From Escherichia virus TH41, in sequence record MT446412.1: DNA of 64,000 nt; one strand, written 5' to 3'. The notes under the pieces were generated by a model that was not told the DNA's origin, did not search any database, and saw only the letters and a list, made by a program, of their open reading frames with translations. Made by a program: the position numbers and the translations under genes. How positions within the stretch are numbered: the stretch's first letter is position 1; every line of letters starts with the position of its first letter. Below, in pieces: positions 1,811 to 55,262 of this stretch.

Positions 1811-3370
1811 TTAAATTCCTTTAACATATACGCGGCGGAAGTAACCGTTCAAGCCGAGGCTATTAACGATGTCCGGCATACCATTCTGAATGCGCTTGGT
1901 CGGAGCCTGAGCAGCAGGGTCAGCAAACGGGTTGATACCGATACCGTAACGGGTTTTGAAGCCCATAACCGGCTGGAAGTTTTTCGGGTCAGAGCCACGC
2001 AGCGGGGTCAGTGCAACATATGGTGCGTAGTAGATACCAGCATCCATTTCGTTAGCGCCTTTGTAACCGATGGTGAAGTAATCTGCACGAGCATACTGGT
2101 CGATATAGACACGGTATTTGCCACCCAGAACACCAGCGAACACAGCTTTAGTGGTGTCAACGTTGAAACCTTTACCCAGACCCTGAGCAGCATAACTTAC
2201 AGAAGTATCAACAGCAGCCAGTACGTTAACTACGTTACGGGAAGCGATGATGAAGTTACCTGCACCACGACCGGTCTGACGAGCGATTTCAGCGGCTTCT
2301 TTATCAATCTGGAACAGTAAAGCTTTGAAGCTTTCACCAGCCCAACGAGCACCACGGATATCAATCGGGTCCTGGAAGTCAAACACACCAGCTTTAGCGC
2401 CAACGGTGTTGGTCATACCAGATTTACCAACCTGTGCGGAGTAGTTAATCCAATCGATAACTTCGCGGTTGATTTCCAGCATAATTTCGGTAGCCAGAAT
2501 ACCACTCAATTCGGCATCAGCATCCATACCGTGAACAGCGCGCAGGTCCTGTGCCAGTTCGATGGAGTAGCTTGCTTTCAGCTGACGGGATTTAGCTTCG
2601 ATAACTTGTTTGTCGATGCGGAAGCCCATTTCGTTCCACGGGTTATCAGAGGAACCGTTAAAACCTTCTTGCAGTTCGGCGATGGAGGTAGCCATACCTT
2701 CAGCCAGTTCAGCCAGCTGACCAGCTTCAACCAGAGCGGTAACAGCAGCGTCAAGTTTAGCAGCGTCAGTAGCAGCAGCATCAACAGTTACAGCTTCAAC
2801 AGCCTGGAAGTGTGCAGAACCAGTTGCTTCGAAGAAGTGAGAATAAATTTTACCAACTTCCAGAACTTTGCTTGCAGCCAGTGCTTCAAAAGTCTGAGCA
2901 GCGCCCTGACCAGAGAACATAGCGTTCGGAGCATACATCGGGTGGAAAGCTTCTTTAGCACCAGCAGCGACAGGGTCTTTACCGTAAACTGCACGCAGGG
3001 CAAATACCTGGCCAGTCGGGTTGTTCAGAGGCTGTACGCCACAAATATCAAACGCAATCAGATGCGGGATAGCACGACGAACCATACCCATAACTGCCGG
3101 CCCAATCTGAGTTACTGCACCAGAGGTCTGGCCAGCGGCGATATTGGTAGCATCATAACCATGGTCACCACCGATTTCAGCTTCGGTCAGGAAAGAACCA
3201 AATGCTTCGGAGATTTTTTCATCACGGTATTCAGGAGCGGTCAGGATATCTTGTTCCTGGTTTTCAAAGATTTTAGCGATGATAGCTTGTTTAGAAGCAC
3301 CAACGATTTCAGGAAGAGCTTCGTTTTCCAGCAGAGCGGACCATTTTTGAACTAATGCATTCTTTTTCAT
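1811..3370 (-). CDS. 23: Major capsid protein gp23
   Basis: 519-aa ORF; long stretches identical to T4 gp23 as recalled (e.g. GSFLTEAEIGGDHGY, AELSGILATEIMLEINREV, C-terminal YFRRVYVKGI). Confidence 0.95.
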   Translation of the reverse strand: MKKNALVQKWSALLENEALPEIVGASKQAIIAKIFENQEQDILTAPEYRDEKISEAFGSFLTEAEIGGDHGYDATNIAAGQTSGAVTQIGPAVMGMVRRAIPHLIAFDICGVQPLNNPTGQVFALRAVYGKDPVAAGAKEAFHPMYAPNAMFSGQGAAQTFEALAASKVLEVGKIYSHFFEATGSAHFQAVEAVTVDAAATDAAKLDAAVTALVEAGQLAELAEGMATSIAELQEGFNGSSDNPWNEMGFRIDKQVIEAKSRQLKASYSIELAQDLRAVHGMDADAELSGILATEIMLEINREVIDWINYSAQVGKSGMTNTVGAKAGVFDFQDPIDIRGARWAGESFKALLFQIDKEAAEIARQTGRGAGNFIIASRNVVNVLAAVDTSVSYAAQGLGKGFNVDTTKAVFAGVLGGKYRVYIDQYARADYFTIGYKGANEMDAGIYYAPYVALTPLRGSDPKNFQPVMGFKTRYGIGINPFADPAAQAPTKRIQNGMPDIVNSLGLNGYFRRVYVKGI

Positions 3371-3391
3371 GTGTTGTATAACCTTATTAAA

Positions 3392-4210
3392 TTAAGAAAT
3401 TCGTGATGCTGCGAGAGCAGACAAGTCCGCGAAGGACAGGGTAGGCTTGGCGCCTTTTTCTTCAACTGCTTCTGAAATGTAATTCAGTGCCGCAGCATCG
3501 TCTACATTTTTATTTATAGCGGCTTCGGTGATTGGTTTGTTGGTGGGTTCTACCTGACCTTTAACCATTTCAACGATAGCGCCAATTTTGGTACCGAATG
3601 CATCAGAGTATTCCATGCCTTCTACCAGAGAACCAACTTTTTCTTTTTGGGATTCAGTCAGGTCTTTAGTTGCTTCAGTCAACGCAACTTCACGTTGGAC
3701 ATAATTGATATAAGCATCACGCTTAGAAACTTCTTCGAACAGGCTAGCGGTTTCTTCTTTCTGTTCAGCCAGTTCTTCCTGCATTTCTGCGACAACATCG
3801 ACAGATTCTTCCGGAACAACAACGTTGTGCTCAACGAACAGTTCTTTCATGCCGGTGAACATGGATTCGAACAGGTCAGCTTTAATGCCACGGTCGACAG
3901 CCAGTTTATTTTCAGCAAGCCATTCTTTAGCAACGTGGTCCAGGAATTTAGCTGCAGATTCTTTCAGTTTTTTCTCTGCTTTTTCGTCGGATTCTTCTTT
4001 ATTCTTTTCGACTTCTTCTTCAGCTTTTTCAGCGATGGCGTGAATGTGAGATTCTGCCAGTTTGATGGCGTGTTGCTTGACGGTAGCTTCGAATACAGTG
4101 CCGAAGGTAGCTTTCGCTTCCGGGGACAAATTAACTGATTCGAAAATACTATCGAGAGCAACGGAAGCATCGATATTCTGAGCTTCAGAAATGAGTTGTT
4201 CTTTAAGCAT
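3392..4210 (-). CDS. 22: Prohead core scaffold protein gp22
   Basis: 272-aa acidic, Glu/Lys-rich ORF; N-terminus MLKEQLISEAQNIDASVALDSIFESVN resembles T4 gp22; synteny. Confidence 0.85.
   Translation of the reverse strand: MLKEQLISEAQNIDASVALDSIFESVNLSPEAKATFGTVFEATVKQHAIKLAESHIHAIAEKAEEEVEKNKEESDEKAEKKLKESAAKFLDHVAKEWLAENKLAVDRGIKADLFESMFTGMKELFVEHNVVVPEESVDVVAEMQEELAEQKEETASLFEEVSKRDAYINYVQREVALTEATKDLTESQKEKVGSLVEGMEYSDAFGTKIGAIVEMVKGQVEPTNKPITEAAINKNVDDAAALNYISEAVEEKGAKPTLSFADLSALAASRIS
3511..3518 (-). promoter_or_regulatory. Late promoter box TATAAATA upstream of gene 23 (inside 3' end of gene 22)
   Basis: Exact TATAAATA on minus strand about 140 bp upstream of the gene 23 ATG. Confidence 0.4.
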
Positions 4211-48951: not shown

Positions 48952-49215
48952 ATGAAAACGTATCAAGAATTTATTACTGAATCTGCCAAAGCTCCTGCTG
49001 GTTCCTTTAAAGTCCGCGCCTTCGCTGGCGATGCTGAAGACTTTGGCACCATGAAGCGCAATGGTTATTCTTTCTTTGGTGGCGATGGTAAAGAAATTGT
49101 CACATATGCAAAACGTCGCGAAATCGCATTCGTGGTTGCTGGTAAGAAAGTTGATGCTGACGATATTGAATGGGACTTTGAGACCTTTGGTATTGTTTCT
49201 GGCGGTAAAGCATAA
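48952..49215 (+). CDS. Internal-protein-like protein with CTS N-terminus
   Basis: Starts MKTYQEFITES; paralogue of 34791-35090. Confidence 0.65.
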   Translation: MKTYQEFITESAKAPAGSFKVRAFAGDAEDFGTMKRNGYSFFGGDGKEIVTYAKRREIAFVVAGKKVDADDIEWDFETFGIVSGGKA

Positions 49216-49217
49216 CT

Positions 49218-49246
49218 GTTTACTTTATGATGGGATAGTGTATAAT
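49218..49246 (+). promoter_or_regulatory. Early promoter / stem-loop cassette
   Basis: GTTTAC, 17-bp spacer, TATAAT; gggatag...tatccca inverted repeat; conserved leader. Confidence 0.45.
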
Positions 49247-49274
49247 TATCCCATCAACTACTGAGGAGAATAAA

Positions 49275-49472
49275 ATGTTAACTTATAAAGAATTTATGAA
49301 AGAAGTTAAAAAACTTAAAAAGACTTCTGGCGATGTTAAAATTGAAATCCATGGTCAAAACGTAAATGTGGTAGCGGATGGCCAGGCATTAGTTCTTTAT
49401 AGTGATAAAGACCAAGAATTTCGTGAAGCACAAAAGAAAAAATTTACCGTATGGCTTAAAAAAGCTGTTTAA
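49275..49472 (+). CDS. Internal-protein-like protein with divergent CTS
   Basis: Starts MLTYKEFMKEV; 65 aa. Confidence 0.5.
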   Translation: MLTYKEFMKEVKKLKKTSGDVKIEIHGQNVNVVADGQALVLYSDKDQEFREAQKKKFTVWLKKAV

Positions 49473-49480
49473 GGACCAAT

Positions 49481-49780
49481 ATGAAAACGTATCAAGAATT
49501 TATCACAGAAGCCAAAGCTCCTAAAGCATTTCAAATCGGAGTCCAGGGCAATTTAGACCAACAATATGTTGATGCTATTGTCGCAAGCCTCGGTAAACAA
49601 GGTGTACAAGTGGATTTGGTTGATTTTACTAAAGGTAATACTTTTAATATTGTCGCATCTAAAGGTTCTTTAGCTAAAGTTAAAAAGGCCTTTGGCGTAG
49701 CACAAGCATATGAAATTGACCATTCTGAATTAGAAAATAAAGGTCGCCAGAACACAATTAAAGGCTCTGGTTCTTTTTAA
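49481..49780 (+). CDS. Internal-protein-like protein with CTS N-terminus
   Basis: Starts MKTYQEFITEA. Confidence 0.65.
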   Translation: MKTYQEFITEAKAPKAFQIGVQGNLDQQYVDAIVASLGKQGVQVDLVDFTKGNTFNIVASKGSLAKVKKAFGVAQAYEIDHSELENKGRQNTIKGSGSF

Positions 49781-51555: not shown

Positions 51556-51556
<1 letters not shown>

Positions 51557-51612: not shown

Positions 51613-52071
51613 ATGACTACTATCGATTCAAGTGTTTACATTCGCCGCAATAAACTTCGTCGCATTTTTGAAACGGAGTTCCTCAAAATTAATAATGCTA
51701 TCAACAAGGCTTGTAAAGAAGCAGGCCTTGAGGCATTCTTCATTAAGTACAGTCCACATCTGTTGGACCGTGCAATCCAACGTGAAATTGATGAACAATA
51801 TGTTTTTGACTTGTTTGGAAAAATCACACCACATGTAAAAGAAATCGTTGAATTCTTGGAGATGAAACCGCTCCCGGAAGTTGAAGCACAAATTGACCCG
51901 AATATGAACTACCGTCCACTTCGTCTGGAAATTACAGACAAGAACCTGTGGTTAGGAATGACAGTTAACCCAGCTCTTCCTGGGAAGTCTCCGACCATGT
52001 GTTGTCGTATGGCGTTTGTTAACTCTAATCGTCTGGAAGGAAAAATTAGCACAAAAGTGATTTATATCTAA
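51613..52071 (+). CDS. regB: RegB endoribonuclease
   Basis: 152 aa; VYIRRNKLRR.FE.EF..IN...HLLDRAIQREIDE.YVF.LF...RPLRLEITD.NLWLG matches T4 RegB as recalled. Confidence 0.85.
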   Translation: MTTIDSSVYIRRNKLRRIFETEFLKINNAINKACKEAGLEAFFIKYSPHLLDRAIQREIDEQYVFDLFGKITPHVKEIVEFLEMKPLPEVEAQIDPNMNYRPLRLEITDKNLWLGMTVNPALPGKSPTMCCRMAFVNSNRLEGKISTKVIYI

Positions 52072-52081
52072 TGGGGAATTC

Positions 52082-52624
52082 ATGAAAAAAGTAATCGCCA
52101 CCTTACTATTGACAGTTAGTATGTCTGCCCATAGCGTAGAGCCTACTTTCAGTAATGAACAAATGGAAAACCTCCAATATGCTTATGCGTTTGGAGAACA
52201 GTTCCAGAAAAATGGTAAGTACAAAGAAAATCCGCACCAACATAATGGTTTGGGATATATCATGGCTGGTTTAACCTGGCAGGAGAGTTCTGCTGGGATT
52301 AATACTGGATTAAATAAAGATAAGCATCATGCATATGGTATATTCCAAAATTATCTTCCAACCGTGCGCGAACGTGTGAAACAGGTTGGGTGGACAATGA
52401 CAGATAAAGAAATAATCAAGATGATAAGCAAGAGAGAGAACAGTGCACGCTGGGCTTACATTGAGCTTTCATACTGGTTGAATATTCATAAGGGGGATAT
52501 AAGGAAAACACTATCATCATATAACGCAGGATGGAATGTGAAAGCTGGTAATACGTATGCTTCACAGGTCCTAGAAAAAGCTAACTACTTAAAATCACGA
52601 GGCCTATTAAAAACGGTGGATTAA
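52082..52624 (+). CDS. Secreted lytic-transglycosylase-like protein (180 aa)
   Basis: Signal-peptide-like N-terminus MKKVIATLLLTVSMSAHS; SLT-family-like motifs WQESS, AYGIFQ, SYNAGWN. Confidence 0.55.
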   Translation: MKKVIATLLLTVSMSAHSVEPTFSNEQMENLQYAYAFGEQFQKNGKYKENPHQHNGLGYIMAGLTWQESSAGINTGLNKDKHHAYGIFQNYLPTVRERVKQVGWTMTDKEIIKMISKRENSARWAYIELSYWLNIHKGDIRKTLSSYNAGWNVKAGNTYASQVLEKANYLKSRGLLKTVD

Positions 52625-52626
52625 AA

Positions 52627-52986
52627 ATGGTAAGAGTTATAACTTTAGCCATAGGGTTAGTATTCAGCATGGGAGGAATAGCTTCAGTACAGAGCGACGA
52701 CAACAACAGCATCATAGAATATGCAACGAGGACGGCTAAAGATTATTGCGCCGCAAGCAATGTGGATTGTATAATCCAGTTCAGCGCCAAGCTCACCGCG
52801 GCATATAAAGATGGTCAAAATGATGTTGAACATACACTTTTGAAAAAGAATGTATTATCCAACAAATATGAAAAGAAATTATTTGAAATGGATTGCATTC
52901 TGTCAAGTGCAAAATATAAGGCGGCCTGCACCAGTATGGTTGACAGGTTAGTGGATTCATATAATAGAGGATTGAACTCTAAATGA
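52627..52986 (+). CDS. Secreted / periplasmic hypothetical protein (119 aa)
   Basis: Signal-peptide-like N-terminus; four Cys in mature part. Confidence 0.45.
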   Translation: MVRVITLAIGLVFSMGGIASVQSDDNNSIIEYATRTAKDYCAASNVDCIIQFSAKLTAAYKDGQNDVEHTLLKKNVLSNKYEKKLFEMDCILSSAKYKAACTSMVDRLVDSYNRGLNSK

Positions 52987-53462
52987 TTACCCAGTATATT
53001 AAGGGCGATATCGTCGCCCTCTTTCTTCAAGGCAATATTATTGCACATGGTTGTAACTGCTTTCACACAATGGGTTCTGGTGTAGCTGGACAGTTGGCGA
53101 AGGCTTATCCAAAAGTTTTAGAAATAGATAAAACCACTACTGAATATGGTTCTCGTGATAAATTAGGCGATATGTCTATTGTTTTTAAACATAAGCCGAC
53201 AGGTTTTGGCATGTGCTATAACTTGTATACACAATACGAGCCAGGCCCTAATCTTGATTATGGCGCTTTAGTAAATTGTATGATAGAATTAAATCTACAA
53301 GCAGAAACCCTTTTGTTTAAACCGGTAATTTATATTCCACGTATTGGTTGTGGTATTGCAGGTGGAGATTGGGAAAAGGTTTCTAAATTAATCGACATGT
53401 TTACTCCTGATATTGATTTAATAGTGGTGGATTATGAAAGCACATTACCCACATCCGTTTGA
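52983..53462 (+). CDS. Macro-domain-like protein (159 aa)
   Basis: GDIVALFLQGNIIAHGCNCFHTMGSGVAGQL and IPRIGCGIAGGDW resemble the two conserved macro-domain glycine-rich motifs. Confidence 0.5.
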   Translation: MITQYIKGDIVALFLQGNIIAHGCNCFHTMGSGVAGQLAKAYPKVLEIDKTTTEYGSRDKLGDMSIVFKHKPTGFGMCYNLYTQYEPGPNLDYGALVNCMIELNLQAETLLFKPVIYIPRIGCGIAGGDWEKVSKLIDMFTPDIDLIVVDYESTLPTSV

Positions 53463-53646
53463 CCCTAAAAACAAAGCGGAAATTATTCGACGCTGGACCG
53501 AAACTCGAGTAACCAAATGTCCTATAAAAAGTCAACACAACACTGATAAATGGTATATCGGTGAATATGTTGAATATACTTTTATAGATAAAAATAAACG
53601 TAAACAGCACGTAGAAGAATATTGCCTAAAGGTACAATGGTTATGA
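53434..53646 (+). CDS. Hypothetical protein (70 aa)
   Basis: ORF overlapping the 3' end of the upstream gene; weakly supported. Confidence 0.35.
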   Translation: MKAHYPHPFDPKNKAEIIRRWTETRVTKCPIKSQHNTDKWYIGEYVEYTFIDKNKRKQHVEEYCLKVQWL

Positions 53647-53849
53647 GCCAAGCCCGAATTCTTAAAACGGCCAAATGTGAAAAATGTGAATGGCCGGTAA
53701 TCGCAGCTTTGTGCAACGATGAAATGAATTGCGAATACGATTACTGGTGGTACTGTTCTAATAAAGGATGTTCTAATCATAAGGGTGAAGGTTTTCATTC
53801 TGGTTATTGCGAACATCCTAAATTTGTGCGATATGGGGAACCGAAATGA
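53643..53849 (+). CDS. Cys-rich putative zinc-binding small protein (68 aa)
   Basis: CEKCEW...C..E.NC...C..KGC...C arrangement of eight Cys; ATGA overlap. Confidence 0.45.
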   Translation: MSQARILKTAKCEKCEWPVIAALCNDEMNCEYDYWWYCSNKGCSNHKGEGFHSGYCEHPKFVRYGEPK

Positions 53850-54031
53850 GTTTAAGCATTAGTCAGAAAAGTAGATTATTTGAGCTTATCCATGAGCTTT
53901 TGGATGAGCATACAGAAGCAAACGCCTTTTATGATGAATACGGCCCAATAGATGCCGAACATCAGGAAGAATTTGCCAATCGATTTGATGCGAAAGAAAA
54001 CGAATTAATAGCTTATGTGAATACGCTTTAA
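53846..54031 (+). CDS. Hypothetical acidic protein (61 aa)
   Basis: ATGA overlap with upstream gene. Confidence 0.4.
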   Translation: MSLSISQKSRLFELIHELLDEHTEANAFYDEYGPIDAEHQEEFANRFDAKENELIAYVNTL

Positions 54032-54040
54032 GAAGGTGAT

Positions 54041-54613
54041 ATGGCGAGTTTAATTTATCATTACGCAGCAATGAATGCAGGCAAAACAGCTTCATTGCTG
54101 ACTGCAGCTTATTCCTATAAAGAGCGTGGAATGAGTGTGCTTTTGCTAAAACCTGTTATTGATAATCGGGACTCGGAAGGCGAAATTAAATCACGCATCG
54201 GTATTAGCCAGGAAGCAAACCTGGTAACGGCCGACATGAACCTGTTTGAATTCTATAAATGGGCCGAGTCTCAAAAGGATATCCATTGTGTCCTGGTCGA
54301 TGAAGCTCAATTTTTGTTACCAGAGCAAATTGACCAGTTAGCTCAAGTGGTTGATAATTACAATATCCCCGTTATGTGTTACGGGTTAAGAACAGATTTT
54401 CGGGGTCAATTATTTCCCGGTTCGGCCAGACTTCTGGCTATTTCGGATAAACTGGTTGAATTAAAGGGCGTCTGTCATTGCGGCCGGAAAGCAACCATGA
54501 CCGCTCGAGTAATCGACGGTGCTGCTGTAAAGGACGGCGAGCAAGTATTGGTCGGTGGGAATGAATCGTACGTATCTTTGTGCAGAAAACATTGGCTCGA
54601 ATTAACAAGCTGA
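54041..54613 (+). CDS. tk: Thymidine kinase
   Basis: P-loop AAMNAGKT, VDEAQF, C-terminal zinc-ribbon Cys pairs (CHCGRKAT...C). Confidence 0.9.
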   Translation: MASLIYHYAAMNAGKTASLLTAAYSYKERGMSVLLLKPVIDNRDSEGEIKSRIGISQEANLVTADMNLFEFYKWAESQKDIHCVLVDEAQFLLPEQIDQLAQVVDNYNIPVMCYGLRTDFRGQLFPGSARLLAISDKLVELKGVCHCGRKATMTARVIDGAAVKDGEQVLVGGNESYVSLCRKHWLELTS

Positions 54614-54620
54614 GGTTCGC

Positions 54621-54896
54621 ATGGTATACAAGGTTTGGACGTATATCTCTATTTTGATATTCCTGGTTTTGGTTTTTGTTCCTATGCAACAGGACCAGGA
54701 AAGGTATGAGCGCGAAGTCGAAATCGTTGCAAGTACCTATCACTCGTTCAACAAAGAGTGCCCCAATAAAAACGGAATAAGCCTGCAACAAGCATACTAT
54801 TTGTCAACGGTCACCAGTCCAAAACAACGGGTCTGGGTTGAACGTAATTTTGCAGGTTTATTTTCAGAGTACTGCTTTAATTTTAAACGTCTATAA
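54621..54896 (+). CDS. Membrane-anchored hypothetical protein (91 aa; rI.1 position)
   Basis: N-terminal hydrophobic segment; between tk and rI. Confidence 0.5.
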   Translation: MVYKVWTYISILIFLVLVFVPMQQDQERYEREVEIVASTYHSFNKECPNKNGISLQQAYYLSTVTSPKQRVWVERNFAGLFSEYCFNFKRL

Positions 54897-54899
54897 ATA
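54892..54899 (+). promoter_or_regulatory. Late promoter box TATAAATA upstream of rI
   Basis: Exact TATAAATA on plus strand about 70 bp upstream of the rI ATG. Confidence 0.45.
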
Positions 54900-54968
54900 C
54901 AGTTACTAACTAGTATTCCGCTATGTTAAGGCTGCAAAGCGTAATCATGACCAACAATAGGAGTCCTT

Positions 54969-55262
54969 ATGGACCTTATTCGAGGACTTTCATTAAGTCT
55001 AATAATCCTGGGCTGTTTAGGTCCAAATCTGTCCTCTGCAACAGATGGGAAGTTTACCCAATATGCAGATAGTGCGATGAAGATTTATTCGCAATTCAAA
55101 GAACCAAGCGTGCACCAATCCGAACAGTTCTGGGCGTTTATCAAGACTGAATGGAACAACAAAAGCCAATGCGAAACTGAAATTACCTGCAAAAGCGATG
55201 GTAAAGCTGCGGCGAGAGAGTACGCTAAATTAATGAAGGTAAAATTGGAAGATGAAATTTGA
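54969..55262 (+). CDS. rI: Lysis inhibition regulator RI (antiholin)
   Basis: 97 aa, signal-anchor N-terminus; SEQFWAFIKTEW...C...C....A.EYAKLMKVKLEDE resembles T4 RI. Confidence 0.8.
   Translation: MDLIRGLSLSLIILGCLGPNLSSATDGKFTQYADSAMKIYSQFKEPSVHQSEQFWAFIKTEWNNKSQCETEITCKSDGKAAAREYAKLMKVKLEDEI

Follow-up and report, generated by a model that had tools for sequence, protein, structure and literature searches.

Two short reading frames lie side by side between the genes regB and tk of Escherichia virus TH41, and both begin with what looks like an export signal. The first resembles lytic transglycosylases; the second is the orthologue of a T4 protein named "valyl-tRNA synthetase modifier". 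The locus raises the question of what two apparently exported proteins would do in an infected cell, and of how the predicted export of the second one can be reconciled with its name.

The objects as such are already known, since they are orthologues of the named T4 genes vs.1 and vs and the similarity of Vs.1 to SLT (lytic transglycosylase) domains has been published (PMC1524935). The residual interest of the locus is twofold: (i) the conserved export signals of Vs make a long-standing functional label testable; and (ii) Vs.1-type proteins, predicted to be exported murein-cleaving enzymes made early in infection, are encoded by over 2000 sequenced phages. For the locus as a whole, the explanation which we consider likely is that of orthologues of vs.1 and vs encoding an exported accessory pair, with Vs.1 as its murein-cleaving member. 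Made early and dispensable, the two proteins would act in the cell envelope before lysis.

The locus and its genes

The window, i.e., the whole stretch of 64,000 nucleotides that was analysed (sequence record MT446412.1), comes from a T4-type, SP18-like phage of the genus Gaprivervirus (approximately 97% nucleotide identity). The 1.9 kb around both reading frames are 97-98% identical to Escherichia phage P479, Shigella phage SP18 and their relatives. Both frames exist on the plus strand as the initial annotation had described them. The following features can be distinguished in the locus, all of them on the plus strand:

51613..52071 (+): regB endoribonuclease, context (Pfam REGB_T4, E 1.3e-71)
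52082..52624 (+): vs.1 coding sequence, 180 aa, ATG/TAA; predicted exported murein-cleaving enzyme of SLT fold, orthologue of T4 Vs.1
52622..52629 (+): vs.1 stop codon TAA, 2-nt spacer and vs start codon ATG, read from the sequence
52627..52986 (+): vs coding sequence, 119 aa, ATG/TGA; orthologue of T4 Vs, predicted exported four-helix protein with four Cys
52983..52986 (+): ATGA overlap of the vs stop and the tk.4 start, read from the sequence
52983..53462 (+): tk.4, macro-domain protein, context (Pfam Macro, E 6e-8)
54041..54613 (+): tk, thymidine kinase, context (Pfam TK, E 4e-58)
54969..55262 (+): rI, antiholin, context (Pfam Antiholin, E 2e-30)

The gene order is that of T4: regB, vs.1, vs, tk.4, tk, rI.1 and rI. 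The regB reading frame had been listed from a GTG at 51556, and the Pfam REGB_T4 match begins at residue 23 of that frame; the ATG at 51613 is the probable start. Downstream of the two frames lie genes for the macro-domain protein, a small zinc-binding protein, thymidine kinase, an rI.1-like membrane protein and the RI antiholin. These neighbours, identified through Pfam and phrog matches, bear out the earlier placement of the locus in the regB-tk interval with rI nearby. That rI is close by is normal for the gene order of T4.

Both reading frames are real genes. Homologues were found by tblastn in 2072 phage records for Vs.1 and in 797 for Vs. The frame at 52082-52624 is the orthologue of T4 vs.1: its product is 65% identical to T4 Vs.1, it matches phrog_600 over residues 1-178 (E 2e-67) and it lies between regB and vs. 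Between T4 Vs.1 (phrog_600) and its TH41 counterpart there is no substantive difference, as length, position, motifs and signal peptide are all shared. Likewise, the frame at 52627-52986 is the orthologue of T4 Vs, to which its product is 45% identical. It lies between vs.1 and tk.4 and matches phrog_1256, "valyl tRNA synthetase modifier" (E 1.3e-32). T4 Vs (phrog_1256, PF26829) and TH41 Vs have the same length and position and share an identical C-terminal block, SMVDRLVDSYNRGL. The initial annotation had given neither the orthology with T4 vs.1 and vs, nor the published SLT similarity, nor the valyl-tRNA synthetase name.

Other kinds of features were sought in the same interval. The opposite strand contained no reading frame with relatives, the Rfam search matched no RNA family, the NCBIfam and PADLOC searches returned no matches, and the promoter and terminator scan found sites no commoner than in shuffled sequence.

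Vs.1 as a predicted member of the SLT family

The first reading frame had been described as lytic-transglycosylase-like on account of three short motifs, all of which are present:

52277..52291 (+): WQESS motif, W66-Q-E68-S-S70; Glu68 (codon 52283-52285) is the predicted catalytic acid/base
52337..52348 (+): G-I-F-Q motif, G86-I-F-Q89, equivalent of GLMQ in family-1 lytic transglycosylases
52520..52531 (+): Y-N-A-G motif, Y147-N-A-G150, equivalent of AYNxG and aligned to GAYNAG of EtgA

In an alignment of 20 sequences which reaches down to 26% identity, residues E68, S69, G86, E128, W132, S146, Y147, G150 and Y159 are invariant, and Q89, N148 and A149 are conserved in at least 90%. Because the key residues are invariant at such a distance, the motifs are not a product of chance. 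Vs.1 has the motifs expected of a family-1 lytic transglycosylase: the ES pair, a GLMQ-type motif (G86-I-F-Q89), an AYNxG-type motif (S146-Y-N-A-G150) and a later Tyr (Y159).

Taken alone, Vs.1 scores 14.4 bits against Pfam SLT (PF01464; E 0.029), the gathering cut-off being 21.3 bits. Among its relatives, 29 of 30 match Pfam SLT with E<=0.01 (best 1.3e-7), and some carry a precomputed PF01464 match. When the PDB was searched with the single sequence or with a close-family profile, no solved lytic transglycosylase was matched; a broader profile reaches EtgA (8urn) at E 0.01 and the cod g-type lysozyme (3gxk) at E 0.68. In these alignments, Glu68 falls on the ES-motif Glu of both proteins, which is taken as catalytic, and SYNAG of Vs.1 on AYNAG of EtgA.

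The AlphaFold model of Vs.1 (pLDDT 85, pTM 0.79) has a goose-lysozyme-like helical fold, and Glu68 lies where helix 58-70 comes to its C-terminal end. The best Foldseek matches of this model are lytic transglycosylases and g-type lysozymes, with probabilities of up to 1.0 but with E values of about 0.05 and a TM score of 0.5. At the level of the family, the SLT assignment of Vs.1 is solid, and the frame is transglycosylase-like, as initially described.

This similarity has been noticed before. In six T4-like genomes, Nolan et al. (2006) found vs.1 to match SLT marginally but in a conserved manner, and they referred to PSI-BLAST results given before in the T4 genome review of 2003 (PMC1524935). 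UniRef and some GenBank records already name homologues "SLT domain-containing" or "lytic transglycosylase domain-containing". Full-text literature searches for vs.1 returned nothing beyond Nolan et al. (2006) and no experimental study of any family member.

With the family-1 lytic transglycosylases (Slt70, MltC, MltE, MltF and EtgA of type III secretion; GH23), Vs.1 shares approximately 13-19% identity. Unlike them, it is phage-encoded and predicted to be soluble, lacks a lipid anchor and accessory domains, and carries an additional helix at the N-terminus as well as a 40-residue insert (residues 25-57).

Predicted chemistry of Vs.1

Within a GH23/SLT fold, Glu68 would serve as the single acid/base which cuts the MurNAc-GlcNAc bond of the host murein. 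Two types of product are conceivable, i.e., a 1,6-anhydroMurNAc end or a hydrolysed one. Hydrolytic g-type lysozymes and EtgA possess a second carboxylate in the region that corresponds to Glu68-Gly86 of Vs.1. The Vs.1 alignments contain no conserved acidic residue at positions 69-85, between E68 and G86. Goose-type lysozyme and Vs.1 have a common fold and a common position of the catalytic Glu, but the conserved Asp residues of goose-type hydrolysis are absent from Vs.1. Since a conserved second acidic residue is missing, the 1,6-anhydroMurNAc product is likelier than the hydrolysed end, and a transglycosylase is, judging from these alignments, the better guess for the chemistry of Vs.1.

It follows from the same alignments that a hydrolytic muramidase of goose type, or else a catalytically dead murein binder, would be a quite unlikely description of Vs.1: the former is at variance with the lack of the conserved acidic residue of g-type lysozymes and EtgA, and the latter with the invariance of the catalytic Glu and of all the substrate-groove motifs.

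Predicted export signals of Vs.1 and Vs

Signal peptides had been proposed for both proteins, and the features of such peptides are indeed found in both. Calls of export were made with our own heuristic, based on the n-region, the h-region and the residues at -3/-1. The slash marks the putative cleavage site:

52082..52135 (+): Vs.1 signal peptide of Sec type (predicted), residues 1-18, MKKVIATLLLTVSMSAHS; cleavage putatively at AHS/V (heuristic)
52627..52686 (+): Vs signal peptide (predicted), residues 1-20, MVRVITLAIGLVFSMGGIAS; cleavage putatively at IAS/V (heuristic)

The N-terminus of Vs.1 reads MKK-VIATLLLTVSMSAHS/V, with 16 uncharged residues after MKK, and that of Vs reads MVR-VITLAIGLVFSMGGIAS/V. 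Both combine a positive n-region, a stretch of 16-20 uncharged residues and small residues at -3/-1, the features looked for in substrates of signal peptidase I, as far as a heuristic can tell. Among the ATG-initiated plus-strand reading frames of at least 60 aa in the window, Vs.1 and Vs rank with RI on signal features, and for T4 RI a cleavable signal peptide has been proven experimentally (PMC8385771).

The architecture is conserved in both families. All 30 Vs.1 relatives possess it, with a sequence that varies and a hydrophobic character that is kept. As for Vs, it is present in 26 of the 28 close relatives (positive n-region, 15-21 uncharged residues); the remaining two (P0107 and P0115) have their first residue within the hydrophobic segment and look as if the N-terminus had been cut short. 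All of the 27 divergent representatives of the Vs family (<85% identity) carry a signal peptide as well, and in the CC31-like members (Enterobacter phage CC31 and relatives) the signal ends in a lipobox, ALSGC/K (LSGC). T4 Vs itself begins with MTKILVLCIGLISFSASASA/DTS.

The Vs.1 precursor of 20.6 kDa would accordingly be exported through the Sec pathway and cleaved, giving a soluble periplasmic enzyme of approximately 18.7 kDa. The Vs precursor of 13.1 kDa, for its part, is predicted to be exported and to yield an 11-kDa four-helix bundle, probably with two disulfides.

Cysteines and predicted fold of Vs

Four cysteines of Vs are invariant in the close family and retained across the extended family:

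52747..52929 (+): span of the four invariant Cys codons of Vs, from close- and extended-family alignments
52747-52749 (+): C41
52768-52770 (+): C48
52894-52896 (+): C90
52927-52929 (+): C101

The AlphaFold model (pLDDT 77) is a four-helix bundle made of helices 24-40, 46-69, 74-90 and 95-116. In this model, the cysteines flank the H1-H2 and H3-H4 turns, from which two disulfide staples can reasonably be inferred; according to the model, then, mature Vs probably contains two disulfides. The fold search with the model gave generic helical matches only.

An HMM search of 1.84 billion representative sequences with the Vs profile recovered eight representatives, which define a phage-only family; all matches are short except for one repetitive protein of 3694 aa, apparently spurious. 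Among those 1.84 billion representatives the profile found no bacterial relatives, no leaderless homologue and no fusion to an SLT domain.

Expression and insertion phenotypes in T4

The frames had been regarded as early-region genes. This agrees with the T4 orthologues, both of which fall into the early-RNA/middle-protein class (PMC9697503 supplement). In transposon data for T4, vs and vs.1 were called non-essential (HIDEN-SEQ preprint supplement). Nevertheless, the mean insertion counts in LB are 26.6 for vs and 22.6 for vs.1, compared with 179-767 for regB, vs.3, tk.4 and tk.3, so that insertions in the pair are approximately 7- to 30-fold rarer than in its neighbours (HIDEN-SEQ preprint supplement). 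Insertions in vs.1 may also affect vs through polarity.

In minimal medium, vs has a log2 fold change of -2.19 (adjusted p 0), while the value for vs.1, -0.87, is not significant (adjusted p 0.155) (HIDEN-SEQ preprint supplement). The 2025 preprint identifies vs as the T4 gene most depleted in M9-glucose, confirms the effect with a knockout and interprets it through the valyl-tRNA synthetase (ValRS) label.

Vs.1 and lysis

A murein-cleaving enzyme with an export signal might also be an accessory lysis enzyme, i.e., a secreted, endolysin-like protein that helps to break the sacculus late in infection. Gene neighbourhoods in other phages give a hint of this: in Cronobacter phage LPCS28, the homologous gene runs into the start of an i-spanin/o-spanin pair, and in Shigella phage Sf17 the homologue, annotated as "putative lysin", lies approximately 1.2 kb upstream of the spanin pair. 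However, T4-type phages already have the gene e lysozyme as their endolysin, and the early/middle expression of T4 vs.1, together with its dispensability, speaks against a main role in lysis. Besides, the N-terminus of Vs.1 resembles a cleavable signal peptide and not the Gly/Ala-rich signal-anchor-release (SAR) domain. Such a lysis function is hence improbable for Vs.1.

Membership of the SAR endolysins was considered separately and rejected on heuristic grounds: the h-region of Vs.1 is rich in Leu, Ile and Val and is followed by AHS/V, and the corresponding segments of its relatives end in AFA, ASA or AYS. Superinfection exclusion and a modified timing of lysis, which the initial annotation had offered as examples of a role for the two proteins, are speculation.

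Do Vs.1 and Vs work together?

The association of both genes was followed in 70 viral loci with a vs.1 homologue. In 56 of them, a reading frame matching the Vs profile starts between -8 and +7 nt from the vs.1 stop; with the extended-family profile, a Vs-family frame is found within approximately 1.5 kb of vs.1 in 64 of the 70. The pair is present in phages of Escherichia, Enterobacter, Proteus, Acinetobacter and Serratia, and in the viral loci examined the Vs family occurs only where vs.1 does. The reverse is not the case: Vs.1 homologues are found without Vs in Aeromonas-25-like phages, Nanhuvirus, Mooglevirus and jumbo phages. RB43-like phages have both vs.1 and vs, separated by other genes.

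Adjacency or overlap of vs.1 and vs was considered as proof of coupling and set aside as weak, the cluster being tightly packed throughout. Indeed, regB adjoins vs.1 upstream as constantly as vs does downstream. Since tight packing and a conserved order are general in the T4 early cluster, the spacing of the two genes is weak evidence of a functional link. Co-evolution was assessed by a correlation of distances controlling for tk, regB and tk.4, and no signal specific to the pair appeared: the partial r was 0.12 for Vs.1 and Vs, compared with 0.55 for regB and vs.1.

One form that a partnership might take is suggested by T4 Spackle, an early protein that loses its export signal by cleavage, has a small helical fold with disulfide bonds and inhibits a periplasmic muramidase, the gp5 lysozyme (PMC7677548). 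By analogy, Vs could regulate Vs.1 in the periplasm, as an inhibitor or as a subunit that targets it, and restrain the enzyme until lysis. The analogy is functional only: Spackle targets the enzyme of the incoming phage, and it has no sequence relationship to Vs. Vs as a homologue of Spackle was tried and discarded (hhalign probability 0.4%).

Several observations are consistent with such a regulator: (i) Vs and Vs.1 share the predicted compartment and, in T4, the expression class; (ii) insertions are under-represented in both genes, unlike in their neighbours; (iii) in minimal medium, the loss of vs is worse than that of vs.1, as an inhibitor would predict; and (iv) the Vs family is confined to loci with vs.1. 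Against it stand the lack of homology with Spackle and of specific co-evolution, the absence of Vs.1-Vs fusion proteins among the 1.84 billion representatives, the Vs.1 homologues which do without Vs, and the close spacing that holds for the whole cluster, regB being as constant beside vs.1. Moreover, in LB the insertions in vs.1, which may have polar effects on vs, are no commoner than those in vs, and this would be unexpected if Vs did nothing but restrain Vs.1. A regulator of this kind is therefore doubtful, and cooperation between Vs.1 and Vs in general is somewhat improbable.

The valyl-tRNA synthetase label of Vs

Valyl-tRNA synthetase is a cytoplasmic enzyme. The label of T4 Vs requires a cytoplasmic protein too, whereas the whole family, T4 Vs included, carries export signals; judged by sequence prediction, Vs was not found to be cytoplasmic. 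The predicted export of Vs is consequently at odds with a cytoplasmic ValRS partner, a conflict that we report without claiming a mis-annotation. Full-text literature searches found no paper in which the Vs label and the signal peptide are brought together.

The label reportedly derives from classical T4 genetics and biochemistry: Marchin and Neidhardt are said to have described a tau peptide of approximately 10 kDa bound to ValRS, as well as vs phenotypes on valS hosts. On this basis, Vs would bind the host ValRS in the cytoplasm, its hydrophobic N-terminus would serve export in part or not at all, and its proximity to vs.1 would reflect nothing more than inherited gene order. The impairment of T4 vs insertions and of the knockout specifically in minimal medium is fitted equally well by a translation-related role. 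The missing co-evolution signal between Vs.1 and Vs, and the genes that separate them in RB43-like phages, also agree with a Vs that acts on ValRS.

Other evidence goes against a cytoplasmic Vs. The signal peptide is kept in every divergent member of the family and becomes a lipobox in the CC31-like members; with a positive n-region, the remainder of the protein is expected to cross the membrane; and the four cysteines are invariant. A leaderless form finds no counterpart either, given that no leaderless homologue exists among the 1.84 billion representatives and that the T4 Vs frame offers no Met codon between residues 1 and 100 at which it could start. As for size, T4 Vs has a precursor of 13.1 kDa and a mature form of 11.0 kDa, and the reported value of approximately 10 kDa for tau fits the processed, exported protein. 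Finally, T4 Vs produced at full length with a His tag is insoluble in the E. coli cytoplasm (PMC8076793). With all this taken into account, binding of ValRS by a cytoplasmic Vs is a real possibility, though short of an even chance.

That Vs is instead a periplasmic, disulfide-bonded envelope protein which works with, or regulates, an exported Vs.1 transglycosylase can be put forward only tentatively. If Vs were periplasmic, then (i) the link made between the T4 reading frame and the genetic vs locus would be mistaken; or (ii) the association with ValRS would be secondary, arising, for instance, after cell breakage or reflecting a second role. The minimal-medium phenotype and the gene name would then need another explanation. 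In any case, the label is approximately half a century old and has been copied into hundreds of genome records, for a family that bears hallmarks of export, lipoprotein variants included.

A remark in the T4T record touches on the same subject: gp40 is said there to have been once "misidentified as spackle gene", so that misidentifications of this kind have happened.

Variants of Vs.1 and Vs in other phages

In the Enterobacter phage CC31 group (comparison loci L033-L035, L037 and L052; about 3549-3875, coordinates after an L-number being positions within that locus), the N-terminus of the Vs-family protein reads MKKLFVLLVVFALSGC|K. Because it carries a lipoprotein box in place of the signal peptidase I site, this variant of Vs is predicted from its sequence to be lipid-anchored in the envelope. 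In RB43/KP15-like phages (L063-L070, about 2830-3560), it is the Vs.1 homologues that differ in form: they measure about 210-225 aa, are extended at the N-terminus and have two additional Cys on either side of the active-site loop (WIESRACEN ... YGCWQ). In these same loci, the Vs-family gene is not adjacent to the vs.1 homologue but lies 0.4-1.2 kb downstream of it.

Outside the Tevenvirinae, the neighbours of vs.1 homologues are lysis genes and pnk: (i) in Cronobacter phage LPCS28 (L002 2968-4150), an i-spanin/o-spanin pair is overlapped by the vs.1 homologue, and the polynucleotide kinase gene comes after this pair; and (ii) in Shigella phage Sf17 (L003 3001-5261), the order is rIIA-rIIB, the vs.1 homologue, and then pnk and the spanins.

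Transposon insertions and locus assignment in T4

In T4, vs.1 and vs carry roughly 7- to 30-fold fewer transposon insertions than the genes on either side, and this scarcity holds even for rich medium (HIDEN-SEQ preprint, supplementary file 7, Data S8). The low vs.1 and vs insertion counts are not discussed in that preprint. Regarding locus assignment, the T4T record states that gp40 (gene 40, L074 5036-5380) was "misidentified as spackle gene", a precedent for the wrong ORF being assigned to a T4 genetic locus.

Neighbouring genes in the window

Downstream of vs, and overlapping its stop codon (ATGA), lies the orthologue of T4 Tk.4, which a 2025 preprint calls AdfM, an anti-DarTG2 factor (10.1101/2025.11.20.689424). 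Between tk.4 and tk, where T4 has tk.3, tk.2 and tk.1, the window encodes a Cys-rich protein.

Products of tk.4 and of the tk.4-tk interval
52983-53462, Tk.4, macro-domain protein
53622-53849, Cys-rich 75-aa protein, Pfam "Phage zinc binding domain" (PF23895, E 2e-29)

A stretch of 3.2 kb (52082-55262) encodes four proteins whose N-termini bear signals for export or membrane insertion.

The four signal-bearing proteins
52082-52624, Vs.1
52627-52986, Vs
54621-54896, rI.1-like protein, N-terminus MVYKVWTYISILIFLVLVFVP...
54969-55262, RI

Elsewhere in the window (48952-49780), three successive small ORFs have near-identical N-termini (MKTYQEFITE at 48952 and 49481; MLTYKEFMKE at 49275), which appear similar to the sequence that targets the internal head proteins of T4 to the capsid. 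A related record carries internal head protein annotations around the equivalent region.
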